A stretch of DNA of 61,905 nucleotides. Source: Nanobdellota archaeon (GTDB lineage Archaea > Nanobdellota > Nanobdellia > Parvarchaeales > Parvarchaeaceae). The stretch spans positions 1 through 61,905 of the forward strand of contig JAJZLM010000008.1 of assembly GCA_021850635.1 (NCBI GenBank), in the 5' to 3' direction. Positions within the stretch are counted from its first letter, which is position 1, and the number at the start of each line of letters is the position of its first letter. Below the pieces are notes generated by a model, which worked only from the letters and a program-made list of their open reading frames with translations, was not told where the DNA came from and did no database searches. Shown piece by piece: positions 4,050 to 38,944 of the stretch. Position numbers and translations under genes: made by a program.

Positions 4050-4325
4050 ATGCCAAGTAAAGAAATCAATCCCAACAAGGCGATACGCAGGCTGTTTCTG
4101 CACGAAAAACCTTTCATGCTACTTAAAATAATAGCTTCTAACGACGGGAGCGCCTATTCTGCGATGGTTGCAAAAAGAATAGACTGTAGTTACACCTACA
4201 TAATAAAACTCATAAAGAAAATGACTGAACTGGGTATAATAACTGCAGAAGGCAATTCACACAAGAAACTTTTAAAGTTAACCTACAGTGGCAAAAGGAT
4301 ATACAAACTTATATCGGATATCTAA
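4050..4325 (+). CDS. Small winged-helix DNA-binding protein (putative transcription regulator)
   Basis: 91 aa; HTH-like segment AMVAKRIDCSYTYIIKLIKKMTELGIITAEG. Confidence 0.45.
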   Translation: MPSKEINPNKAIRRLFLHEKPFMLLKIIASNDGSAYSAMVAKRIDCSYTYIIKLIKKMTELGIITAEGNSHKKLLKLTYSGKRIYKLISDI

Positions 4326-4808: not shown

Positions 4809-6071
4809 TTAGCTTTGCTGGGTAGAAAGCTTATTCAGCTTATTGTTTATCTCTATGAGGTCGTCTTTCGTGGCAAACAAGGTAAAATTACTCTTTATCT
4901 TTGCTAGTTCCAAATCCGCACTTCCAATTCTTTTTGAGAGGTCGCCAAGTTTGTTGGATAAGTCCATGAAACGGTCCATTTGACTGCTGATCTCATTGTA
5001 CATAACCTCTACTTTAGAAACCTTAGCGTTTATTCTGTTATCGACTTCCTCTAACGAGTCTGAAGTCTTCTGCACGGTTTCTAAAAGCTTCGATGCGTTC
5101 TTGATAGTAGAGAGCTCGGATAGCTTATTGTTAACCGAAGACAGTGACGATTGAAGTTTTTCTACTCTAAAAGCCATGTCAGACATTTGATTTTCTATAG
5201 AATCTGTCTTATCTATATTCTTCTTTATCTCTATGCTCAAAGTCTCAGGACTGTAAGTGCTTGCATTGGATATGGATGACCTAGCTATGTTTATGAAGTC
5301 CATAACATGTTTTTGGGTGTCGGATACACTGGCTTGTATATTCTGGAACTCTTTACTTATAGTGTCTAGCTTCAAGCTAAGACTATTTGTTTCCACTGAC
5401 AGTGAATTCGCGTTGTTTGTCAACGCTTCAAAACGGGAGTTTATGTTAGAGTTGGCTTTCTTAAGCTGGTTCAGGTCGTCCACTAATCTGTTTATATTTG
5501 GTATGCCAGAATACAATGTCTCAGAAAGCTTGTTGACTTTATTCATAAGCTCATTGTCAGAAGAGGTGAGCTCGTTCAGCTCGTTTCTCACATTTTCAGA
5601 CAACCTATCTAAATTCGCTTTCAACTCATCGGTTCTCTTAGAGTTTACATCCACGTCATGGGACACTTTATCAGCTAAGCTGTTGAAGCTGTTTATGCTC
5701 TTGTTTAGGTCGGAAACAAGCATGTTCGAGTTTGAGGAGACGGATTCCACGGCGGAACTTAATTTTGTTATCTTAGACACAGAGTCCCTATAATTTTCAT
5801 TTACCCTGTCTATTGCGGAATTGAAATTTGATATCATTCCATTGAAGTCTGAAGACAGTTTATCCACCTTAGAATCTATCTTTTTAATATACGCAGGGTC
5901 TATATTGTCCCTTCTGGCGGCATCTATCTCTGATATACTATGAGCCAGAGAATCTATCTTACGATATATATCAGTGATCGTGTCGTTTAATCTTCTGTTG
6001 AAATCATTTATACTTTTTGAGTAATCACTGTAGTTCTGTGATACTTCTACTTTGGAATCACTGTTCTGCAT
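4809..6071 (-). CDS. Asn/Ser/Leu-rich coiled-coil protein, function unknown
   Basis: 420 aa, no TM segment, continuous heptad-like low-complexity sequence (..NKLSELS.., ..DLNKSINSFNSLADKV..). Confidence 0.6.
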   Translation of the reverse strand: MQNSDSKVEVSQNYSDYSKSINDFNRRLNDTITDIYRKIDSLAHSISEIDAARRDNIDPAYIKKIDSKVDKLSSDFNGMISNFNSAIDRVNENYRDSVSKITKLSSAVESVSSNSNMLVSDLNKSINSFNSLADKVSHDVDVNSKRTDELKANLDRLSENVRNELNELTSSDNELMNKVNKLSETLYSGIPNINRLVDDLNQLKKANSNINSRFEALTNNANSLSVETNSLSLKLDTISKEFQNIQASVSDTQKHVMDFINIARSSISNASTYSPETLSIEIKKNIDKTDSIENQMSDMAFRVEKLQSSLSSVNNKLSELSTIKNASKLLETVQKTSDSLEEVDNRINAKVSKVEVMYNEISSQMDRFMDLSNKLGDLSKRIGSADLELAKIKSNFTLFATKDDLIEINNKLNKLSTQQS

Positions 6072-14183: not shown

Positions 14184-15863
14184 ATGACAGAATACAAACT
14201 TGACAATAAGTTCAACGATTCATTCAAGCAGGTAGCTCTAGGTGTATCTATAGGAGAAAACAATCAGCTTGCTGAGTTTGCGAAGATACTTAGAAGCGGT
14301 GCTCAGATGGTAGAACTGGATCTCGCTAGCCTTTACGGACACACGGGTCAGGGAACATCAGCTGAAAAGATCGGCAAAACTGAAAGAGAAGCAATAGGTA
14401 ACTTGGCAAAGACCACTAATTCCGATCTTAGTGTACATGCACCGTGGTCTATAAACTTTTCTGGAATAAACCCGAAGACCGGGGAAAAAGACACCAGTTA
14501 CAGCGAGCTTATGAGGAATGAGATAGAAGCTGCTATAAAATTCACAGATGAAATCAGCAGGCCTATGGGAAGACGCAACATGCCGATAATATTTCACGCC
14601 GCTTCGGATAACTTCGGCACACCAGATCCTAGATCACGCATAACTGTCTATGATAAAAAAGATGACAAAGTTATCTCTATAGGTCCATCAAAGATTATGA
14701 ACACAAGTTTGGAAGAATTCAAAAATGTTTATGGTGAAGACACCTTCAAAAGATTGCGTGGAGAGATAGCCCAGAAAAAAACCGATAGGAATGAGGCTTA
14801 TATCGAATTCACCCCTCAGGGCGCCCTTAACTTCCAACTAGACCAGTTGAGAATAGGGATGAGTCAGCAACTATCCACTATCGATATAAGCGAACGTAAC
14901 ATCGAGAGAAGATTGATAGAAGTAGCTAACGAATTTGTAGAGGCTAAAGCAAAAGGAGAAAACAGGGAATCCGAACTTTCAGCAAAAAAAGAAAGATTGC
15001 TCCAAGAGAAAAAGGACCTTTCGACTGAGAGGTACAGACTACAGAAAGAGATAGATAATCTGGGCTCCAGATTCGTATCATTCAGCGAAGAAGCTCCTAA
15101 ACTAGCAGCAGAAGGCATAAAAAATGCAGCACTTATGGCCGCTAAAACAAAGACTGCCCCTATGATACTTGTGGAGAATACGATGAGCCCGGACATGTCT
15201 TTAAGTAAACCGGAAGACGTGAAGAAAACTATAGACGCCGCCAGAGAACTATTTGTTGAAGCTGCGATGAAGGACGAAAAACTTAGACTGTCTAGATCCG
15301 ATGCAGAGAAATTGAGTAGGGACCTGATCGGCGTAAATCTGGACGTTGGACACTTGAACATATTCAAATCGTATACGAACCCAAAGACTGGGAAACCTTA
15401 CTCAGATAAAGATATAGTCAAAATGGCTGGGACCCTAGGAGACTATGTGAAAAGATATCACTTGAACGATAATATGGGTAACATAGACGCGCACCTGCCT
15501 CTCGGAGAAGGCACTACTCCGATAAAGGAGATATATGAGACGCTTAGGAACGCGGGTGTTGAAGCGCCGGCGATAATGGAGGTATTCGGAGGTGTCGGCG
15601 GTATAACTGCCGGGATGGGTCCATCAATGCAGTATATGGGCGCGCCTCTTTTTGACAATATGCCTTATGCTGGTCTCCCGGCTTATGCCGGCAGACCTTA
15701 TTCTTCGATCGTCGGAGACTACTCCTCATATCTCAACTTGGGATTAAGGAACGACCTTTTCCAGTACGGCGGTTTCAGCGGTATATCGCCGACATTTGGA
15801 GCAGGTTACATGCAGAACGAAAGAGGTGGTGAAGGTGGCTTCTCTGGAGCGCCGATTATTTAA
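14184..15863 (+). CDS. Xylose-isomerase-like TIM-barrel protein with inserted coiled coil and Gly/Tyr-rich tail
   Basis: VELDL..., LSVHAPW, NLDVGHLN, HLNDN..IDAHLPLGEGT match the AP-endonuclease-2/sugar isomerase barrel pattern. About 100 aa of charged coiled coil lie in the middle. The C-terminal 90 aa are G/Y/P-rich. Confidence 0.5.
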   Translation: MTEYKLDNKFNDSFKQVALGVSIGENNQLAEFAKILRSGAQMVELDLASLYGHTGQGTSAEKIGKTEREAIGNLAKTTNSDLSVHAPWSINFSGINPKTGEKDTSYSELMRNEIEAAIKFTDEISRPMGRRNMPIIFHAASDNFGTPDPRSRITVYDKKDDKVISIGPSKIMNTSLEEFKNVYGEDTFKRLRGEIAQKKTDRNEAYIEFTPQGALNFQLDQLRIGMSQQLSTIDISERNIERRLIEVANEFVEAKAKGENRESELSAKKERLLQEKKDLSTERYRLQKEIDNLGSRFVSFSEEAPKLAAEGIKNAALMAAKTKTAPMILVENTMSPDMSLSKPEDVKKTIDAARELFVEAAMKDEKLRLSRSDAEKLSRDLIGVNLDVGHLNIFKSYTNPKTGKPYSDKDIVKMAGTLGDYVKRYHLNDNMGNIDAHLPLGEGTTPIKEIYETLRNAGVEAPAIMEVFGGVGGITAGMGPSMQYMGAPLFDNMPYAGLPAYAGRPYSSIVGDYSSYLNLGLRNDLFQYGGFSGISPTFGAGYMQNERGGEGGFSGAPII

Positions 15864-15864
15864 T

Positions 15865-16647
15865 ATGGATGAAAAAGACAAGGGAGAATTAAAGCTAAGA
15901 GGATATGATTCGGCGTATAAGTTCGCCAAAGGGGCGTTCGAAAAATACCCTAAACTTATAAAGACCATTGCATTGTTCGGTTCGTACAGCAAAGGAAAGG
16001 AAACAGAGCAAAGCGATGTGGATATAATGCTGATAATGGATGACGTATTAAACAAGTTGGATGAAAACGTACTAGCTCCTTTCTACGCAGACATAGACAA
16101 GATAATAAAAGCTGAAAAATCCATGAAGTTGCATATAAACTTCGTTACCCTAACGGCTTTCTGGAAGGGTGTTCTAGCTGCTGACCCTGTTTCTGTAAAC
16201 GTGCTAAAATACGGAGTACCGCTCATAGATACTGGATATTTTGAGCCGCTGCAGGTACTATTAGAAAGAGGAGAAATAAAACCAACGGAAGAATCTATAT
16301 ACGCCGCTCTCTCCAGGAGTCAGCTGTACGCGGAGTCTTCAAAGATAAGGCTTGCTGGTTCAATAACCGACATGTACTGGTCGGTCGTCAATTCGGCCCA
16401 GGCTCTGATAATGAAGCATGGAGAGGTGCCTCCTTCTCCAGAAACGATAGGGGAAATGCTTGAATCTCTGCAGAGGATGCACGTGGTAACAGAGGAAGAT
16501 ATATCCACGTTTAACCAGATATTCACAATAGGCAAAAAAATACTGCACGGCGACAAAGTGGAGATAACCGGAACCGATGTAGACAAGATAATAAGCGCAG
16601 GAATGCGATTCAACGAGAAGATGGACCGTCTGGTCGAAAAAGGTTAA
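15865..16647 (+). CDS. Nucleotidyltransferase (Pol-beta superfamily) fused to a HEPN-like helical domain
   Basis: FGSYSKGKETEQSDVDIMLIMDD (GS...DxD NTase motif) with a helical C-terminal half. Paralog of 24492..25571. First ATG is 1 nt after the upstream stop. Confidence 0.72.
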   Translation: MDEKDKGELKLRGYDSAYKFAKGAFEKYPKLIKTIALFGSYSKGKETEQSDVDIMLIMDDVLNKLDENVLAPFYADIDKIIKAEKSMKLHINFVTLTAFWKGVLAADPVSVNVLKYGVPLIDTGYFEPLQVLLERGEIKPTEESIYAALSRSQLYAESSKIRLAGSITDMYWSVVNSAQALIMKHGEVPPSPETIGEMLESLQRMHVVTEEDISTFNQIFTIGKKILHGDKVEITGTDVDKIISAGMRFNEKMDRLVEKG

Positions 16648-16709
16648 TTCTCCAAAGGTTTAACGCTGTTATAAGCAATATTTAAATACTAAAAGAGACT
16701 TGTATCATA

Positions 16710-17078
16710 ATGATAACCGGTTCCAAAGGTCAAGGATTACCGATAAATACTATAATACTTATAGCTATAGGTCTTCTGATATTGGTCCTTTTCATAACGT
16801 TCGTTCTAAACGGGTTCAAGGGGATAGGTGGTTCGACGAATCCTAATGCCCAAGCCCAACAGGCTTTCGCATCAAATTGCCAGACTGCATGTTCTGAATC
16901 TGCGGCATCTAATAACCCAGCGCAATGGTGCAGTTATCCTAACGATACTATAGGCGGCACGCTGTTCAGCTGTGGTAATGTACCAGGAGGAACGACAAGC
17001 TGCAGGCTCGATAATGGTACAACATTCTATTGGGGTAGCTCCGGGTCTCCATCCTGCTTCAGTGTACTGAATCCTTAA
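16710..17078 (+). CDS. Cys-rich secreted protein with class III (prepilin-like) signal peptide
   Basis: MITGSKGQGLPINTIILIAIGLLILVLF N-terminus; 6 Cys in the mature part; paralog of 54314..54664. Confidence 0.6.
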   Translation: MITGSKGQGLPINTIILIAIGLLILVLFITFVLNGFKGIGGSTNPNAQAQQAFASNCQTACSESAASNNPAQWCSYPNDTIGGTLFSCGNVPGGTTSCRLDNGTTFYWGSSGSPSCFSVLNP

Positions 17079-17170
17079 TTAATCTAATCTAGTAGATACT
17101 CCTAAGTCTATATTGCAATGATTTATCTTGCTTAATAAAAGTTAAATACCAAAGATGTAATACCATAAAA

Positions 17171-17755
17171 ATGACCACGCAGAGCAGCCTAGCCAGCACG
17201 ATATTAGGCTTCATTCTACTTATAGCGATAGCTGGGGGAATAATATACGCATTGAGCAGTCACATAATATTGATAAACACGTGCAGTGCAGATTCGACTT
17301 TGATATTCCAGAACAAAACAGGGTTGTGCCTATCGCATAATTCTTCAATAGCTATATCTGAAGGGACTATAGTGCCTCTTGCGTTCAAGTTTATCGGTAA
17401 TAACCCTCTATTATACATATGGAACCAGAAGATATCAGAGAAAGCGGATTCATACGTGTTCATGTCTATACCAGACACTTTCAGAGTCCACATGCAGTAT
17501 AATGCTACTTCGGATACGGAGTTCTTGGTGATGACAAACCAGCAGTACGTTGCATGGGTAAACTCCAACGGCGCTAATGCTGCTAGTGTGTTCTCCCTGT
17601 CTGGCAAACAGGTGTCTGGATGGTTCAATGACAGTGCAGGATGCGCCGGATACGTGGCCGTGATAATATCCACCTCACATTCTGCATTTTCGATATACCC
17701 TAATGAGACAGCGCTGTACGACCCAGCGCCTTCTCCGACGGGCGTTTGCGCATAA
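17171..17755 (+). CDS. N-terminally membrane-anchored or secreted protein
   Basis: 194 aa; the single N-terminal hydrophobic helix is ILGFILLIAIAGGIIYAL. Several N-x-S/T sequons. Confidence 0.5.
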   Translation: MTTQSSLASTILGFILLIAIAGGIIYALSSHIILINTCSADSTLIFQNKTGLCLSHNSSIAISEGTIVPLAFKFIGNNPLLYIWNQKISEKADSYVFMSIPDTFRVHMQYNATSDTEFLVMTNQQYVAWVNSNGANAASVFSLSGKQVSGWFNDSAGCAGYVAVIISTSHSAFSIYPNETALYDPAPSPTGVCA

Positions 17756-17801
17756 ATTCCCCTAAAATCGATTTTATATTTACTGGAGGCTATAAGGTGT
17801 A

Positions 17802-18419
17802 ATGGAGATGAATGCTTTCGAAGCCATAAATGAACTTAAAAAGTTCTTCGATGGCACTGGATCTATAATGAAATTGAGTACTATAATACCCGCTAAAAAG
17901 CTCGATATAAATCTAGATTATTTGGAAGGCGCTGTAAAACTAAAAGTGTCTCATCCTCTGCGCTTATATGCCGATGAGATATACAAGATACTTTTGAGAC
18001 TGTACCTGGTGTCTTCGACTGAACTTATAGTCGATTTCATATCTGGCGGAAAACCCAGAAGCGTGTCTAAGAAGTTCGGTGCCGACGAAAACATAAAGGA
18101 CACTATAAACGACCTGCTGGAGCTGCCGCATGAAAGGATAACCGACATAATAATAGAAACGGAATACTTCAAGATAGTAGAGACATCTGACCTAAATGAC
18201 ACTGTTTCAATGATAATAAAAAAAGGAGACCAAAAAGCCCTGTTCAGGAGCCTGCTAAATTATCTGTTTCCATTCGTCAACGTGTCCGTCGATAAATCTG
18301 CAAAGGAAGAGATAACATTTGAACAGAACGAGGACGAGCTAACAGCGGACGTTTCTATAACGGTAGACGGGACTTCTATAGGGATAAAATCAAAGCATGT
18401 AAAGCTCCTAAAGATATGA
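17802..18419 (+). CDS. Hypothetical protein, first gene of the KaiC-like/GTPase/Roadblock operon
   Basis: 205 aa with no recognisable motif. Its stop overlaps the next start (ATGA). Confidence 0.5.
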   Translation: MEMNAFEAINELKKFFDGTGSIMKLSTIIPAKKLDINLDYLEGAVKLKVSHPLRLYADEIYKILLRLYLVSSTELIVDFISGGKPRSVSKKFGADENIKDTINDLLELPHERITDIIIETEYFKIVETSDLNDTVSMIIKKGDQKALFRSLLNYLFPFVNVSVDKSAKEEITFEQNEDELTADVSITVDGTSIGIKSKHVKLLKI

Positions 18420-19075
18420 TAAAGACAGGAATACAATCCTTCGACGATGCAGTAGGAGGCATAGATTTGAGGAAGACCTATCTTATAAGCGGAAACAAGG
18501 AAAGCGGCAAGGAGGATTTTTCGTATAGGCTTGTGGCTTCTGCCCTCCGTGATAAGAATGCGGTCATATACGTCACGACTGGAAAGACTGTAAACGACGT
18601 AATCGCATCGTTCCAGTCGAGACAGTTGAATATATCTCAGTACATGGGGAATTCTTTCAAGATAATAGACGCTTACAGCAGAAGCATATCACCGCAATCT
18701 ACGGACAATTCATATACCAAGATGCTAAACGGTCCGTTGGACCTTACGGGCATATCAGTAGCGCTTTCTGCTATGAACGCTGAAATGTCAAAGGAAGGAG
18801 TCCCGGTCCTCAACGTAATAGACTCAATTTCGGTCCTGATGCTATACAACAACCCTACTACAATATATAGGTTCCTCCAATTTGTATGCGGCCGCTCTAA
18901 AATGGCGGGGATATCTAGCGTGTTCCTTATAGATGATGAGATGCACTCCCCTGAAGTAAACGAAACCATAAAATCCATAATGGATTCTGTGATAATGCTT
19001 AGATTAGAGAACGGGAAAAGGAGCTTTAAGGTATTAGGAAACTCTAAAGAGGTACTGGATTGGAAGGACATATGA
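18416..19075 (+). CDS. KaiC/RecA-superfamily ATPase-like protein (ArlH/FlaH-sized)
   Basis: 219 aa; GIQSFDDAVGGI...LISGNKESGKE (Walker A with E in place of S/T), Walker B-like VLNVIDSIS. Confidence 0.68.
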   Translation: MIKTGIQSFDDAVGGIDLRKTYLISGNKESGKEDFSYRLVASALRDKNAVIYVTTGKTVNDVIASFQSRQLNISQYMGNSFKIIDAYSRSISPQSTDNSYTKMLNGPLDLTGISVALSAMNAEMSKEGVPVLNVIDSISVLMLYNNPTTIYRFLQFVCGRSKMAGISSVFLIDDEMHSPEVNETIKSIMDSVIMLRLENGKRSFKVLGNSKEVLDWKDI

Positions 19076-19120
19076 GCACGACCAAAGAAGGGTTATATTT
19101 GTGGGTGGATAATCTTTTTT

Positions 19121-20329
19121 ATGGATAAAGTTAAAGACCCTGTATTTGGTATAGGTAAGCTAGATGATGACCTTACTGGGATCCCAGACAAGAAAAGTGT
19201 ACTTTTTTTCGCTTCTCCGGCTGTCGGAAACGAAGTTTTCGGTTATCAAGTTATACACAATAACCTATTACACGGCAATAAGGTACTGCTGTATGTAAAC
19301 AGGACTTCTCCGGAAGCGTACCTTGCAGACATGAAGGATTACGATTTTGAAGTTAACAGCAATCTGCATATAATAGACTCCTATAGCGGGATAACTGGAA
19401 TAAGTTCCAAAAGCGTTGACGACAGTACGATGATTTCAAACCCATATGACAAGGAAGAGATAAAGAAGGCGCTTTCAGAAGAATTGGACAAAGGGTATGA
19501 TCTTCTTGTCATAGATTCACTTTCCCTGATCGCTGATTTCTTCGATTTTGACTACGCGATGTCTGTTATAGATCTTGTAAAAGATAAGCTAGATAAGAAA
19601 GGCGGCTCTGTACTATCTCTGTTTACAGACTGGGATTATGGAGAGGAAAACTTGAACAAACTTATCTCCAAAGTAAACGCTAAGGTAGATATAAAGGGAA
19701 TAGAGAAACGAGTTATATTCGGACAATACTTCGCCGTTATAAAATGCGACTGGGTAAAGGATAAAAAGTTCTCATCGGTATTATTCAAGGCAGTGAAGCC
19801 AGGTGGAATAAAGATATACTTCCCCAAGATACTTGTTACTGGGCCTACAGATGCGGGCAAGACGTCTTTTATACACTCGGCATCAAAGGATGCAGTCAGC
19901 GTCGACAGACTTGGGGGCACTATAGCACTAGACCATGGAAATCTAGATTTTAAGGGTTACAAGGCAGATCTTTTCGGAACACCTGGTCAAGAGAGGTTCG
20001 ACCCGTTGCTCAAACTGTTGGGCGGTGAAGCCGTAGGGGTCATACTCGTGATAGATTCGACTAAACCAGACCAATTCCCAAGAGCGATAGAGATGCTCAG
20101 AAAAACAGAGACGTACGGCCTTCCGATAGTCGTAGTAGCAAACAAGGCAGACCTGCCTGGAGCTTTGTCACTCGATGATATAAGAGAACACCTGCACCTA
20201 GACAAGAACACCTCTTTGGTTAGGACCGTCGCAGAAAACTTAAATAATATAGATCCTAACAAACCGACAAGACTAAAGAAAGACGGAGTGGACTCTGCGC
20301 TCGATGCACTGTTCGCGGAGCTGACCTGA
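19121..20329 (+). CDS. Fusion of a degenerate KaiC-like domain with a small Ras-superfamily GTPase
   Basis: The N-terminal 230 aa are KaiC-like but lack the P-loop lysine (ASPAVGNE); DLLVIDSLS is retained. The C-terminal part has G1 GPTDAGKT, G3 DLFGTPGQERF, G4 NKAD. Confidence 0.75.
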   Translation: MDKVKDPVFGIGKLDDDLTGIPDKKSVLFFASPAVGNEVFGYQVIHNNLLHGNKVLLYVNRTSPEAYLADMKDYDFEVNSNLHIIDSYSGITGISSKSVDDSTMISNPYDKEEIKKALSEELDKGYDLLVIDSLSLIADFFDFDYAMSVIDLVKDKLDKKGGSVLSLFTDWDYGEENLNKLISKVNAKVDIKGIEKRVIFGQYFAVIKCDWVKDKKFSSVLFKAVKPGGIKIYFPKILVTGPTDAGKTSFIHSASKDAVSVDRLGGTIALDHGNLDFKGYKADLFGTPGQERFDPLLKLLGGEAVGVILVIDSTKPDQFPRAIEMLRKTETYGLPIVVVANKADLPGALSLDDIREHLHLDKNTSLVRTVAENLNNIDPNKPTRLKKDGVDSALDALFAELT

Positions 20330-20364
20330 AAAATGTTTAAATTGAAGGTAGATAATAAGTAGAT

Positions 20365-20739
20365 ATGGCCACTAAATCAGAATCGATGAGTATAATATTG
20401 GAGAAACTAGGGGAAGTAGGTGGAATAAAAGCTTCTGCGGTGATCTCTGCAGATGGCCTGCCTATAGTGCACAGGATACCTCAAGACATAGACCCGAATA
20501 ATTTCGCGGCTATGATGGCTTCGATGGTAGGTGCAGCCGAAGAGGCGCTTAAGTACCTTGGGTCCAAAAACATATTTGACACCATATTCGCGGAATCTAA
20601 GGATATAAGGGTCGTAGCTATAAAAGCTGGCGACAACGCTATACTCACGGTAATGACCGACCCGAATGCGAATTACGGACTTATAAAAATGTACGCTAAG
20701 AGATCTGCTGATGAGATAGCAAATATACTGAAGGACTGA
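20365..20739 (+). CDS. Roadblock/LC7 (MglB-like) domain protein
   Basis: 124 aa; GGIKASAVISADGLPIV ... AILTVMTD pattern typical of Roadblock/LC7. Confidence 0.7.
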   Translation: MATKSESMSIILEKLGEVGGIKASAVISADGLPIVHRIPQDIDPNNFAAMMASMVGAAEEALKYLGSKNIFDTIFAESKDIRVVAIKAGDNAILTVMTDPNANYGLIKMYAKRSADEIANILKD

Positions 20740-22571: not shown

Positions 22572-24305
22572 TCAGAACAGAGGGTTATCGAACTTCGATA
22601 AGGGAGTCATTAGATTCTTCCTTCTTTTGAACTCGTTGTATATCAAATATGCATCGTTCATCGAAATGAACATCCCTGCTTCTATCGCTCTCTTATTCTT
22701 TATAGCGCCGAACTTCCTGTGGCTAAGCTCTATTTCATAAAGCTCGGGTTTGAAACTGTGTTTATCATCTTCATAGTGCGGAGATGCTGCAGACATCGCT
22801 TTATTTATGCCTAGGATGTCATCCTTGAACGACCTATAGATATCTATGAATGCGTAGCTGTTGTCATTTTTCTTTGGTTTTGTCGCTTTGTCCGCTTCCT
22901 CTATATACTTATCTAGCTCTTTCTGTATCGAGCTGAGTGAAGAAACTGAAACCTTGTCTAACTCTGAAAAGACGGTTTTGCTTATCCTTGCTTCCTGTGC
23001 CTTAGTGAATAAATACCATTCATCTACGGAAAAACAATAAGGGGTAACGTTTATGTCTAGCGTACCGTAGTACTGCGGTTTATCCTGTATGGCACCCTTT
23101 AGGAATAGCTGTTTTTCAACAAAGGTCAGAGATACTTCTATAGCTGATATCACCTTAGGCCCATATTTAGTCAGGTAATCGTGGATGAATGACCTGCTGT
23201 TCTCGCGTGGGCCTTGTCTCATGGACGGTGATGCGGGGAACTTTTCATTGACTGAAACTGGGAGCTGCACCCCTTTGTTGCCGAATATCTTTGCGTTTTC
23301 AACTGAGTACTCTCCTAGGTATATAGGCTTGTTGCCAATTACTTCTAGAGATAATTTAGCAGTCTCCATTATATCCGGTTGCTTAGTATTTGACATGTAT
23401 CCTTTCGCGTCTTTAGTCCCTGTCAGATTTATTCTCTTAAGTATAGTCAGAGCTTCAGCGGCCCATTCTGAATACATTTTATACGAAGACACCTGGCTTT
23501 TCAGGTACTGCAGAAGCATAGCTTTTCTCTGTCTTAAGTCCGAACCGCTTATTTTGACCCACTCCTCATATTCTATGTATCTGTTCTTGAGTATGTCCTT
23601 GTACTCGTCGTTCCTCTGCATGTTTTCTATGTCTCTTAAACTTTTCACCTTGTAAAATGAAGCGACTAAGTCTATGAACCCAGCTCCTCCCTGTCCTTGG
23701 GAGTACCCAGCTGAAAGAGCAGCCAGACTTGCGCCTCTTTTTCTTGCATCGACCTGGTCCACGAATATTCTCTTGAGAGCCAGTCCTGCAGCTTCCTTTT
23801 TCTCTTTGTCGCCAGATTCCATCAGATTATAAAATTGAAGGTTCCTGTCTAATTCTCTCAGTTCGTACGTTATGGATATTATTGATTTAAGGACGGTGTT
23901 GACGCTGCCCAGAAGAGTCATCGCTCTGTCTTCGAAGGCTTTCCTTTTTTCGAAAACCATCACCATCAAGTTCGACAAAGCCGAAGGGTCTATGGACTCC
24001 GCAGTCTTTAGCATATTATAACCCAATCCCCCGAACTCTTGTCTCACCATGTTATATTCTGTCTGGAACTGGTATCCTTTTTCTATATCAAACGAAATAA
24101 AGATACCTTTTTCTGGACCAATCAAACCTGGGGCTGGCGTTTCCTTTTTTTTGGCGAACTTCAGGTTTTCTAGCTTACCGCGATAATGGCCTTCTATGCT
24201 GGAAGCACGCATCTTCAGCTCCTTTATCCATGAGTCCACCACATCTGTTGGTGTAGAAGGTTTCATCAGCATTTCCACATATCTTGATAAAGTCGCTAGA
24301 TTCAT
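22572..24305 (-). CDS. Orphan 577-aa soluble protein, function unknown
   Basis: Long uninterrupted ORF with normal composition. No TM, P-loop or other motif recognised. Helical and charged central region. Confidence 0.7.
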   Translation of the reverse strand: MNLATLSRYVEMLMKPSTPTDVVDSWIKELKMRASSIEGHYRGKLENLKFAKKKETPAPGLIGPEKGIFISFDIEKGYQFQTEYNMVRQEFGGLGYNMLKTAESIDPSALSNLMVMVFEKRKAFEDRAMTLLGSVNTVLKSIISITYELRELDRNLQFYNLMESGDKEKKEAAGLALKRIFVDQVDARKRGASLAALSAGYSQGQGGAGFIDLVASFYKVKSLRDIENMQRNDEYKDILKNRYIEYEEWVKISGSDLRQRKAMLLQYLKSQVSSYKMYSEWAAEALTILKRINLTGTKDAKGYMSNTKQPDIMETAKLSLEVIGNKPIYLGEYSVENAKIFGNKGVQLPVSVNEKFPASPSMRQGPRENSRSFIHDYLTKYGPKVISAIEVSLTFVEKQLFLKGAIQDKPQYYGTLDINVTPYCFSVDEWYLFTKAQEARISKTVFSELDKVSVSSLSSIQKELDKYIEEADKATKPKKNDNSYAFIDIYRSFKDDILGINKAMSAASPHYEDDKHSFKPELYEIELSHRKFGAIKNKRAIEAGMFISMNDAYLIYNEFKRRKNLMTPLSKFDNPLF

Positions 24306-24491
24306 ATTAGTAATTTGACGGTGGTAATTTATATACTATTACCATAGATGACCAAACTCTATTTTCCATTCGTGATTTTTAACGTAGCCGGCAACGCTTG
24401 ACAGCCGATAGAGCAGCGTCCCACGACAATACAAAAGACTTATAAAGGAGAGTGGAGTGTAATATAAATTTATCACTTGAGGAATTATATT

Positions 24492-25571
24492 ATGCATCAG
24501 ACCGAAAACGTGAACCCTGTTGAAGGAGCGCTCAACAAGCTTTTTTCCACGATAGACGCTCTTTCTGCAAAGATAGACGAACTTAATGAACGAGTAGACT
24601 ATATGGGCTCTTTCGTAGGTATAGACGTTGGAGAAGAGGGCAAGGAAGCGCATATAGAACCACCCGGTCAACTAGCTGGTCTTTCTTTCGATATATTAAG
24701 CAAGATACTACAGCCAAAAGATGCCAACGATATTAGAGCGTATTTCCTTAGGGTATTAAGCCTATTTAGAAAATACATAAAATCTATAATAATATTCGGA
24801 AGCTCCAAAACAAAAACCGGCATAAACAGCACATCTGACATAGACGTGGCTTTCATAGTAGACGACACGGATATACAGAGATTTACGCTGGAACAGCTCA
24901 AAGAGAGACTATTCACTAAGATGGCCGAGATAGCGAAGGACTTCTCCGAGAAGATACACGCTCAGGCTTATCCTCTTTCTGAATTTTGGGCTTCTATAAT
25001 AAAACCAAATCCTGTGATACTAACCTTATTGAGGGATGGCATAGCGGTTTACGATACGGGTTATTTTGTGCCTATACAGATGTTGTACAAGACTGGGAAC
25101 ATCATCCCTACCAAAGAATCAATAGACGCTAACATAGAGAATGCAGAAGGACTTATAATGCTTGCAGACAACGTTCTTAGCACAAAACTGAGCATGGACC
25201 TTTATAACTCCGTTGTAGCAGCTGGGCAGGCTCTTCTTATGGAATACGGTTACTTACCACCCGTGCCTAAAGAAGTTTCTAAGGATCTTATGGTGATAGC
25301 CGTAGAAAAGGAAAAAGCGCTTACTAAGGAAGATGTGGATAAAGTAAGCGATGTAGTCACATGGTTCAAAAAGATAGACCACGGTGAAATCAAAGAAGTT
25401 AGCGGCGAAGAATACAGTAAGAAGCGCAAGATAACTAAAGAGGTCGTTGATAAGATACTAAAGATAATAAGCGACTTGCGAGAAAAAAAAGGGATTCCAA
25501 AGCCAGCGATAGACAAGGAGATTGCAAAGGAGATGGAGAAGAAAGACAGCCAATATAGCGTCCCGCAGTGA
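24492..25571 (+). CDS. Nucleotidyltransferase fused to a HEPN-like domain, with coiled-coil N-terminal and K/E-rich C-terminal extensions
   Basis: IIFGSSKTKTGINSTSDIDVAFIVDD NTase motif. VYDTGYFVPIQMLYKTGNIIPTKESI aligns with LIDTGYFEPLQVLLERGEIKPTEESI of 15865..16647. First ATG at 24492. Confidence 0.72.
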   Translation: MHQTENVNPVEGALNKLFSTIDALSAKIDELNERVDYMGSFVGIDVGEEGKEAHIEPPGQLAGLSFDILSKILQPKDANDIRAYFLRVLSLFRKYIKSIIIFGSSKTKTGINSTSDIDVAFIVDDTDIQRFTLEQLKERLFTKMAEIAKDFSEKIHAQAYPLSEFWASIIKPNPVILTLLRDGIAVYDTGYFVPIQMLYKTGNIIPTKESIDANIENAEGLIMLADNVLSTKLSMDLYNSVVAAGQALLMEYGYLPPVPKEVSKDLMVIAVEKEKALTKEDVDKVSDVVTWFKKIDHGEIKEVSGEEYSKKRKITKEVVDKILKIISDLREKKGIPKPAIDKEIAKEMEKKDSQYSVPQ

Positions 25572-38831: not shown

Positions 38832-38944
38832 TCCGCTCGGCCGGATTCGAACCTGCACTCTTCCCGTCGCTGCCCTTCATCGCACTAATACATAGCACTT
38901 TGTTATATCTACAGCGGGACGCGTTACCGTTGCGCCACGAGCGG
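38832..38944 (-). tRNA. tRNA-Tyr(GUA) with a 41-nt intron at the canonical 37/38 position
   Basis: Hand fold: acceptor CCGCUCG/CGAGCGG plus discriminator A, D arm GCGC-AACGGUA-ACGC, G26. Anticodon stem UCCCG/CGGGA, loop CUGUAG|intron|A, T arm GCAGG-UUCGAAU-CCGGC. BHB is helix CUGU/GCAG flanked by 3-nt bulges AGA and CGA. Confidence 0.8.

Follow-up and report, generated by a model that had tools for sequence, protein, structure and literature searches.

A conserved archaeal gene trio with a putative MglA-type GTPase fused to a KaiC-like pseudo-ATPase domain

Archaea have expanded families of KaiC-like proteins and of small GTPases coupled to Roadblock proteins; a signalling function has been proposed for both by comparative genomics, but few have been tested. 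Dimers of the Roadblock protein MglB act as GTPase-activating proteins (GAPs) of the small GTPase MglA by positioning intrinsic residues. Here we describe a locus of a Candidatus Parvarchaeota member, a DPANN archaeon, in which components of both kinds are encoded side by side. The locus is located on contig JAJZLM010000008.1, and the whole analysed stretch of 61,905 nucleotides (nt) is referred to as the window. On balance, we favour the reading that positions 18416-20739 specify a signalling module of three proteins that is conserved in archaea, in which a switch of the MglA/MglB type is carried by a largely non-catalytic KaiC-like platform. The platform is the least secure part of this picture.

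Several described systems resemble parts of the module. In the MglA-MglB systems, which include the polarity switches of Myxococcus xanthus and Thermus thermophilus and MglA groups 2-5, the gene of a small G domain is positioned next to that of a single-domain Roadblock protein. A survey of the MglA family (Wuichet & Sogaard-Andersen 2014, PMC4316618) found that groups 2-5 have the G3 motif GTPGQ in common, that an intrinsic arginine beside the G2 threonine occurs in group 1 only, that the MglB proteins coupled to groups 2-5 carry an Asp-Gly pair, and that archaeal group 4 has no conserved neighbours; proteins longer than 240 amino acids were left out of the survey. The actinobacterial conservon combines a GTPGQ-type MglA-family GTPase (CvnD) and a Roadblock protein (CvnB) with the sensor kinase CvnA and with CvnC. 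KaiC-like ATPases of archaea, together with KaiC domains that have become inactivated (iKaiC), have been proposed to be signal-transduction hubs (Makarova, Galperin & Koonin 2017, as related in PMC5847659). ArlH, also called FlaH, is a related single-domain KaiC-like protein, which assembles into hexamers and phosphorylates itself rather than being a strong ATPase (PMC8978795). In Rag-Ragulator-type assemblies of eukaryotes and Asgard archaea, Roadblock or longin domains provide platforms for small GTPases; in principle, a dimer of Roadblock fold carries or regulates the GTPase (PMC10933270, PMC3747258).

The locus contains four co-oriented open reading frames (ORFs), the last three of which form the module. 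The features are, with their coordinates in the window:

17802-18419, + strand: ORF of a 205-amino-acid protein, a candidate DPANN-specific accessory
18416-19075, + strand: sKaiC, 219 amino acids, a stand-alone single-domain KaiC-like protein of the RecA superfamily
19121-20329, + strand: the fusion, 402 amino acids, an iKaiC domain plus a small GTPase domain
19121-19816, + strand: iKaiC domain of the fusion, amino acids 1 to ~232, a KaiC-like pseudo-ATPase domain
19817-20329, + strand: GTPase domain of the fusion, amino acids ~233-402, a small GTPase of the MglA-family type
20365-20739, + strand: Roadblock/LC7 protein, 124 amino acids, MglB-like, a presumed GTPase regulator

The stop codon of the 205-amino-acid gene overlaps the start codon of sKaiC in the sequence ATGA, and the subsequent gaps are 45 nt between sKaiC and the fusion and 35 nt between the fusion and the Roadblock gene. 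An earlier note on this DNA, made from the sequence without database searches, had listed four co-oriented genes, the ATGA overlap and a set of motifs; all four ORFs are present at exactly those coordinates, as is the overlap, and every quoted motif was found at its place in the translations. Identical sequences of all four proteins are in GenBank as MCL5009449-MCL5009452, sKaiC being MCL5009450.1; these entries are named, in order, 'hypothetical protein', 'RAD55 family ATPase', 'GTP-binding protein', and 'roadblock/LC7 domain-containing protein'. The GC content of the module, 0.41-0.42, equals that of its flanks, and the other window ORFs that were scanned encode mostly housekeeping proteins (aminoacyl-tRNA synthetases, MCM, aIF2-type GTPases, TFIIB, enolase, and ribosomal protein S2). 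Therefore, the locus is part of the native chromosome and not an island.

The C-terminal domain of the fusion scores above the curated cutoffs of TIGR00231 small_GTP (58.5 bits, cutoff 42.5, E 6.6e-16) and of the Pfam models Arf, which is the best domain model (47.9 bits, cutoff 22.3, E 1.4e-12), and Ras (34.4 bits, cutoff 21.6, E 2.1e-8). The G1 motif GPTDAGKT (amino acids 241-248, nt 19841-19864) has the form GPxx[AS]GK[ST] in 60 of 60 aligned family members. The switch I/G2 segment SVDRLGGT (nt 19898-19924) ends with Thr267, which is invariant in the family. The G3 motif DLFGTPGQ (amino acids 283-290, nt 19967-19990) retains GTPGQ in all members but one (59/60), and G4 is NKAD (amino acids 341-344, nt 20141-20152), which reads NKx[DN] across the family. 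By these matches and by motifs G1-G4, the C-terminus of the fusion is a small GTPase domain of the Ras superfamily.

The earlier note had left the family of the GTPase open between COG2229, MglA, and Arf-like proteins. As judged by motifs and gene coupling, the domain appears better placed in MglA-family groups 2-5 than in Arf proper. Like the members of these groups, it has the G3 sequence GTPGQ without the usual aspartate and no arginine adjacent to the G2 threonine, the residue preceding Thr267 being Gly, Thr, Asp, or Glu across the family, and its Roadblock partner contains an Asp-Gly pair. Membership of the Arf family proper was rejected, although the Pfam Arf model scores best, since FGTPGQ has glycine where the WDxGGQ type has aspartate. 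With 402 amino acids, the fusion falls outside the ~150-240 amino acids that define single-domain MglA proteins, and its not featuring in the MglA survey would follow from the exclusion of proteins longer than 240 amino acids.

The 124-amino-acid protein consists of a single domain, which matches Pfam Robl_LC7 with 54.3 bits (cutoff 23, E 1.2e-14). Its Asp-Gly pair is part of the sequence SADGLP (nt 20446-20463). Gly31 is invariant in 18 Roadblock partners, in which residue 30 is Asp (13 proteins), Glu (3), or Asn (2). The protein appears MglB-like, with a presumed role as a GAP or platform, and by motif and gene coupling it would form an MglA/MglB-type pair with the GTPase. The Pfam and NCBIfam searches, together with the family profiles, thus bear out the assignment of KaiC-like, GTPase, and Roadblock domains to the locus.

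The N-terminal half of the fusion, compared as a single sequence, scores 20.5 bits against the Pfam KaiC model PF06745, below the cutoff of 26.6, and matches FlaH in phmmer with E 0.014. Many relatives of the fusion have a precomputed PF06745 match. A family profile built from 18 sequences finds PH0284 (E 2.3e-21) and KaiC (E 1.7e-19) in the PDB, as well as PH0186 and SSO2452, and hhalign aligns this family with that of sKaiC over 226 columns (99.9%, E 5e-34). The monomer model of the fusion predicted by AlphaFold2 (AF2), with a mean predicted local distance difference test (pLDDT) score of 87.9 and a predicted template modelling (pTM) score of 0.76, was compared with known structures using Foldseek; it superposes onto PH0284 with a template modelling (TM) score of 0.78-0.82 and a root-mean-square deviation (rmsd) of 2.7-3.1 Å, and onto Sulfolobus FlaH (PDB: 4yds) with a TM score of 0.78. 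Because the family profile, hhalign, and the predicted fold agree despite the sub-threshold score of the single sequence, the N-terminal half is a KaiC/RecA-fold domain, as had been claimed.

The position of the P-loop in the fused domain is occupied by ASPAVGNE (amino acids 31-38, within ASPAVGNEVF, nt 19211-19240), in which the lysine is replaced by asparagine and the serine or threonine by glutamate; GTGKS of FlaH and GTGKT of SSO2452 align with AVGNE. The loss of the P-loop lysine, rightly read from the window sequence in the earlier note, extends to the whole family. The sequence GK[S/T] is missing from 60/60 aligned members and from all genome-derived copies, and the position follows the pattern P-[GSA]-[VI]-[EGD]-x-x-x-F across the 60 fusions, which argues for an old and maintained state rather than decay. 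The Walker B motif LLVIDSLS (nt 19502-19525) contains Asp132, which is present in most lineages and is replaced by Gly or Glu in the clade of Methanoperedens, Methanosarcinales, and Methanocellales. The invariant Asp139 is located seven residues downstream of Asp132. As a single KaiC/RecA-fold domain with disrupted motifs that is fused to a signalling domain, the N-terminal half fits the iKaiC concept as PMC5847659 relates it; unlike the hubs described there, it has a Ras-superfamily GTPase with a Roadblock protein as its output partner.

The iKaiC and GTPase domains are joined without a linker through the segment KPGGIKIYFPKILVTGP (nt 19796-19846). The last KaiC strand, KPGGIKIY, which aligns with '..tdkGIvv' of sKaiC and PH0284, directly continues into strand 1 of the G domain, PKILVTGP. 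Residues Pro227, Gly228, Gly229, Pro235, and Lys236 are invariant. The junction is modelled with a pLDDT of 85-89, and the least confident stretches of the G domain are amino acids 261-270, in switch I/G2, and 291-300, just after G3. Because the junction is identical across the family, we infer a single origin of the fusion and a rigid mechanical coupling of its two domains.

The stand-alone protein sKaiC matches PF06745 with 65.8 bits (cutoff 26.6, E 4.8e-18) and DUF7504 with E 3.5e-10, and its family profile matches KaiC (E 5.8e-43), PH0284 (E 7.4e-37), and FlaH (E 1e-15). The Walker A motif GNKESGKE (amino acids 26-33, nt 18491-18514) keeps the lysine and has glutamate in place of serine or threonine, and the Walker B motif VIDSIS (amino acids 134-139, nt 18815-18832) contains its aspartate. 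The sequences VTFEES of KaiC, which includes the catalytic pair of glutamates, and ALEEH of PH0284 align with VTTGKT of sKaiC, so that Gly-Lys takes the place of Glu-Glu. The ending GKE is found in Parvarchaeota and in most aligned members from Methanoperedens, Methanosarcinales, and Halobacteriota, and in the clade of Methanoperedens and Methanosarcinales the Walker B aspartate is replaced by asparagine. Because of the GKE ending, the missing catalytic glutamate, and the Walker B asparagine of one clade, the sKaiC protein of the window may bind ATP but seems poorly equipped for its hydrolysis. The description of sKaiC as a probably active paralogue is therefore doubtful, and the 'ATPase-gated' switch that the earlier note built on it is unlikely as a general mechanism.

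sKaiC and the fused domain have the size and fold of ArlH. The identification of sKaiC as ArlH/FlaH was rejected, since its scores against the NCBIfam equivalogs, 34.1 bits for ArlH NF052589 (cutoff 215) and 53.9 bits for FlaH PRK06067 (cutoff 194), are far under the cutoffs, and no arlI or arlJ is located nearby in the window. A bona fide circadian KaiC was rejected as well: the NCBIfam KaiC score is 46.2 bits against a cutoff of 408, sKaiC and the fusion each contain one KaiC domain and not two in tandem, and no KaiB-like gene was seen in the module gene clusters inspected.

The fusion is represented by at least 120 protein clusters in a database search into which the best 120 clusters were taken; these are all full-length fusions of ~390-420 amino acids, with named sources among Parvarchaeota, Ca. 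Rehaiarchaeum, 'Nanoarchaeota', Methanoperedens, Methanocellales, and Methanosarcinales. When species were scanned with one genome each, 26 full-length fusion loci (numbered with the prefix L) were obtained, which span Parvarchaeota, Woesearchaeota, Altiarchaeota, Aenigmatarchaeota, Hadarchaeota, Archaeoglobaceae, Halobacteriota, Methanosarcinales, Methanoperedens, Methanocellales, Methanobacteria, and Thermoplasmata. The window instance is nothing exceptional within a large family of wide distribution. What the earlier note took for an unfamiliar arrangement is common, although its annotation is only generic; of the note's refuting condition, a fusion and gene order both common and already annotated, half therefore holds.

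Profile searches of the ORFs at these loci found an sKaiC homologue near the fusion in 24/26 and a Roadblock gene in 21/26, or 21 of the 24 that are informative, two contigs ending at the fusion gene. The co-conservation of the KaiC-like, GTPase, and Roadblock genes, for which the earlier note had proposed a survey of relatives, thus holds. The order sKaiC-fusion-Roadblock occurs in Parvarchaeota, Methanoperedens, Methanosarcinales, Archaeoglobaceae, and Aenigmatarchaeota, and the order in Methanobacteria is Roadblock-fusion-sKaiC-sKaiC. The permutation of the gene order with the trio kept argues for selection on co-occurrence, and the recurrence of the arrangement in 26 species-level genomes of many archaeal lineages puts it far beyond chance. 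Unlike the stand-alone MglA proteins of at most 240 amino acids, the G domain of the module is fused to a KaiC-like pseudo-ATPase and is usually accompanied by this second KaiC-like protein. At 54 bacterial loci of stand-alone GTPGQ GTPases (L032-L085), sKaiC was a neighbour in none (0/54), and a Roadblock gene was detected in 6/54 with the archaeal profile, a count that says nothing on the coupling of these GTPases to MglB.

The Halobacteriota locus L011 contains, between positions 4276 and 10161, two fusions of 393 and 392 amino acids, four Roadblock genes within 6 kb, and one sKaiC. In L027 from Hadarchaeota (positions 71-1293), the iKaiC part (183 amino acids) and the GTPase part (227 amino acids) are separate, slightly overlapping ORFs with no Roadblock gene nearby, which is either a natural split or an assembly frameshift.

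In three expanded clusters of the DPANN type (L004, L087, and L088), the module is accompanied by genes of sensors and regulators. The clusters of L087 (2624-12188) and L088 (4230-13218), both from uncultured archaea, are co-directional and consist of one or two TrmB genes, the fusion, Roadblock, FIST, HAMP, a second Roadblock, PAS/GAF, and sKaiC, with small ORFs of 72-161 amino acids without a Pfam match interspersed. The cluster of L004 has V4R plus PAS. In 21 other genomes, 66 genes neighbour the fusion on the same strand; their commonest Pfam families are TPR (4) and V4R (3), and none recurs widely beyond the trio. The DPANN-type clusters resemble the conservon in that the trio is positioned beside HAMP, FIST, PAS, and GAF proteins, as the GTPase and Roadblock of the conservon are combined with sensors. 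Unlike the conservon, the six co-oriented genes of the window have no HATPase, HisKA, or DUF742 (CvnC) match, and the module has KaiC-like proteins where the conservon has CvnA and CvnC.

The pairing of a Roadblock protein with a small GTPase is shared with the Rag-Ragulator type. Systems of that type pair or fuse the Roadblock with the GTPase and have no KaiC/RecA-fold domain, and the module is found in Euryarchaeota and DPANN and not specifically in Asgard archaea. No description of a KaiC-GTPase fusion was found in the full-text literature searched, a body that did not include the 2017 survey by Makarova and colleagues, nor is such a fusion mentioned in the work of Podar 2008 on V4R. Compared with MglA-MglB, the conservon, ArlH, and circadian KaiC, the module appears to be a distinct variant, in which a Roadblock-regulated MglA-type GTPase is combined with KaiC-like pseudo-ATPase parts.

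In the reading that we favour, the G domain would be the working part of the module, cycling between GTP- and GDP-bound states. The MglB-like Roadblock protein, which is probably dimeric, would control this cycle as a GTPase-activating platform. The G domain is mounted on the P-loop-less KaiC/RecA-fold domain in a manner that may be rigid, and the dead iKaiC domain together with sKaiC could form an oligomer similar to those of KaiC and ArlH, possibly a mixed ring. Such an oligomer would be a scaffold or, at most, a nucleotide-binding sensor of adenine nucleotide or phosphorylation state, and not a motor ATPase; by this means, multiple G domains would be made accessible to effectors and to the Roadblock regulator. 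The inputs may be lineage-specific and include the PAS, GAF, FIST, HAMP, and V4R proteins and the TrmB regulators encoded in the same clusters elsewhere. GAP activity of the Roadblock protein, hetero-oligomerisation of iKaiC with sKaiC, and the scaffold or sensor role are all suggested by analogy to related proteins.

Several points weigh against this reading. The best sequence matches of the G domain among solved structures are Arf and Arl proteins, with MglA outside the top 60; the similarity to solved MglA is low, so that the designation MglA/MglB-type draws on motifs and gene coupling and not on close sequence similarity, and no link to polarity or motility is known for the module. The Roadblock protein scores 29.5 bits (E 6.6e-7) against the NCBIfam model of Thermus-type MglB, NF052242, which has a cutoff of 200. 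No Roadblock gene is located near the fusion in L019, L026, and L027, and no sKaiC gene in L013 and L018. The sKaiC proteins of Methanobacteria and Aenigmatarchaeota have the canonical GKS or GKT, and in lineages with GK[S/T] sKaiC may turn over ATP. Because TATA-like boxes are located ~25 nt upstream of genes in the window, co-transcription is established for the overlapping pair only. The hetero-oligomer of iKaiC and sKaiC is suggested by homology and co-occurrence, and the searchable literature yielded no experimental study of any member of the module.

A bolder version of the same picture is that the fusion and sKaiC form a mixed KaiC-like ring bearing a crown of Ras-like G domains with docked Roadblock dimers, which would act as a coincidence switch for ATP and GTP or as a slow timer and would be widespread in archaeal lineages. 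We consider this version rather unlikely. If it were true, it would join the 'hub' logic of archaeal KaiC proteins to the Roadblock/GTPase logic later elaborated by eukaryotes in Rag-Ragulator and Arf-like systems, and would be a signalling machine without a characterised counterpart.

The module would not surprise a comparative genomicist, yet it is clean and directly testable. It unites KaiC-like and Roadblock-GTPase components in a compact three-protein unit that occurs from methanogens to DPANN archaea and is easy to bring to the laboratory, where one could ask whether a dead RecA fold is an oligomeric platform and whether a Roadblock protein is an archaeal GAP. It also offers an experimental handle on archaeal MglA-type GTPases, the fused forms of which fall outside the standard survey by their length. 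A system-level name could replace the annotations 'GTP-binding protein' and 'RAD55 family ATPase'.

The earlier note had further proposed a surface-filament role, and this leads to an alternative in which an active sKaiC ATPase gates the fused GTPase and the module controls a type IV pilus-like filament encoded by two genes directly upstream of the four-gene unit. These genes exist and encode small proteins with hydrophobic N-termini, separated by gaps of 92 and 46 nt:

16710-17078, + strand: first small protein upstream of the module, N-terminus MITGSKGQGLPINTIILIAIGLLILVLF...
17171-17755, + strand: second small protein upstream of the module, N-terminus MTTQSSLASTILGFILLIAIAGGIIY...

The two proteins have no significant Pfam match and no NCBIfam or PADLOC match. 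Their pilin-like N-termini, their co-orientation with the module, and the short gaps speak for the filament, as does the conservation of the six-gene arrangement in five Parvarchaeota genomes, in which the upstream pair is 38-50% identical; however, the synteny among Parvarchaeota covers both flanks including unrelated housekeeping genes and does not single out the pilin-like genes, and Ca. Rehaiarchaeum, in which the upstream pair is not conserved, has a glutamate dehydrogenase gene, not a pilin-like one, just upstream of its four-gene unit. Some archaeal type IV pilus loci are reported to contain or adjoin genes for KaiC-family ATPases and for Roadblock proteins of arCOG02603 (Makarova et al. 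2016, PMC4858521), and bacterial MglA is reported to stimulate the formation of type IV pili (PMC7519303). Against this stands the gene content: of the 30 window proteins compared with Pfam, none is a type II secretion-type ATPase or a TadC/ArlJ homologue, and pilin, type II secretion ATPase, and TadC are absent from the 25 top Pfam families of the 66 neighbours in 21 other genomes. The retained Walker A lysine and Walker B aspartate of sKaiC would suit an active ATPase, but its GKE ending, the lack of the catalytic glutamate, and the low ArlH score do not. The filament role is thus reduced to the synteny within Parvarchaeota, since the 25 commonest neighbour families of the trio elsewhere include none of a pilin, a type IV pilus, or the archaellum. 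A link to a type IV pilus or archaellum was rejected because neither the scanned window proteins nor those neighbours include a pilin, a type II secretion ATPase, TadC, or an Arl protein, and we regard the whole alternative as unlikely.

A second alternative is that the module is a slow timer or oscillator, in which a KaiC-like ring carries the G domains as a second tier, and slow turnover or autophosphorylation together with the Roadblock-controlled GTPase cycle produces a delay or a rhythm, so that the logic of KaiC is combined with that of MglA/MglB. The RecA-fold domain, with another P-loop NTPase domain directly behind it, is reminiscent of the CI-CII arrangement of KaiC, and full-length KaiC is among the Foldseek matches of the fusion model; nevertheless, it superposes poorly (rmsd 12-16 Å, TM ~0.45), with one domain fitting, and a two-tier geometry of the CI-CII kind was rejected as unsupported by the monomer model. 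The rigid junction would suit a timer. KaiC autophosphorylates, which also counts in favour. The same activity is described for ArlH (PMC8978795), and MglA and MglB are reported to drive a pole-to-pole oscillation in Myxococcus. However, the KaiC-like parts of the module look catalytically weak or dead, and the clusters contain no KaiB-like partner that could be seen. A timer therefore seems improbable to us.

Thirdly, the module could have a housekeeping role that has nothing to do with environmental signalling, for example one linked to the ribosome and translation or to cell division, as a constitutive regulator retained even in reduced genomes. DPANN lineages have reduced genomes, and the module is retained in those of Parvarchaeota, Woesearchaeota, and Aenigmatarchaeota. 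Its neighbours in the window are housekeeping genes, and in Methanoperedens it is followed by genes for YhbY, S19e, and a dsDNA-binding protein. However, the flanks vary by lineage and no housekeeping neighbour recurs, several genomes have the module among sensor domains and TrmB regulators, and some, such as that of L011, have two copies. We give this role little credence. That the genes are merely adjacent and independent in function, as separate AT-rich TATA-like elements upstream of window genes might suggest, is close to refuted by the co-occurrence of the trio in 21-24 of 26 species-level genomes from distant lineages and in permuted order, and by the many genomes among these in which start and stop codons overlap or almost touch.

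The 205-amino-acid protein encoded upstream of sKaiC has no Pfam, NCBIfam, or PADLOC match. It had been called an orphan, a label that does not hold, given its 20 close relatives, which are all from Parvarchaeota, and a few distant DPANN homologues. A HMMER scan of 1.84 billion proteins found only 10 representatives. In five other genomes of Parvarchaeota (L006-L010), a homologue likewise precedes and overlaps sKaiC, and a 192-amino-acid homologue (hhalign 97%, E 1.3e-10) precedes sKaiC in Ca. Rehaiarchaeum (L089), the fusion of which is 49% identical to that of the window. A distant homologue, P0143, is located away from any such module. The AF2 model of the protein (pLDDT 88.8, pTM 0.82) has an alpha/beta structure with four helix-plus-sheet units. 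It has no fold match at E<0.007 in the PDB or in the viral library BFVD, and the top fold matches, which are CYTH-like, have a TM score of ~0.14 and are meaningless. The possibility that the protein is a divergent Roadblock or longin domain was rejected, since the Foldseek matches to LAMTOR/Roadblock structures are weak and partial (probability 0.4-0.6, TM <0.3) and the hhalign probability against the Roadblock family is 0.4%. We treat the protein as a putative DPANN-specific accessory, and its translational coupling to sKaiC would make it a candidate accessory or input of the module in Parvarchaeota.

AT-rich TATA-like elements are located at 16679-16688, ~17143-17150, ~17772-17782, and ~20336-20343, with the sequences TTTAAATA, TTAAATAC, TTTTATAT, and TTTAAAT, ~20-30 nt 5' of the starts at 16710, 17171, 17802, and 20365, and a weaker element, TTATATTT, is positioned ~25 nt ahead of the start at 19121. 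Each of these genes may be transcribed from a promoter of its own, or the transcripts may be leaderless. With 12 occurrences in the window against 7.2 expected, the exact 8-mer TTTAAATA shows no enrichment; 9/100 shuffles reached 12.

An anti-phage defence system was rejected as an identity of the locus, since the sole PADLOC match (E 0.005) is at the level of the P-loop and not meaningful. On the opposite strand, ~1.8 kb downstream of the module, a 577-amino-acid ORF (22572-24305) is without a Pfam or NCBIfam match. A 420-amino-acid protein (4809-6071, - strand) has many weak matches to coiled-coil families (DUF1664, Syntaxin_2, ATG17_like, BLOC1_2) and is probably a long coiled-coil protein. 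The 559-amino-acid protein encoded at 14184-15863 (+ strand) matches the xylose isomerase-like TIM barrel family AP_endonuc_2 at amino acids 376-469 only, and a coiled-coil-like stretch at about amino acids 240-295 appears inserted. Some of its Parvarchaeota relatives seem shorter, with 480 amino acids in L010 and 240-282 in L006, L007, and L009, the last three of which possibly are cut short, as their ORFs start at most ~100 nt from the 5' end of the retrieved stretch. Rfam identifies a tRNA at 38832-38944 on the - strand (45.3 bits), and ARAGORN reports none in the whole window; its span of 113 nt would fit an archaeal tRNA that has an intron or is atypical in another way. Two proteins, encoded at 15796-16647 (283 amino acids) and 24477-25571 (364 amino acids), both on the + strand, have an N-terminal nucleotidyltransferase domain (NTP_transf_2/Polbeta) and resemble each other in their C-terminal halves. 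The two seem to be paralogues, and the gene of one is located directly upstream of a pilin-like gene.

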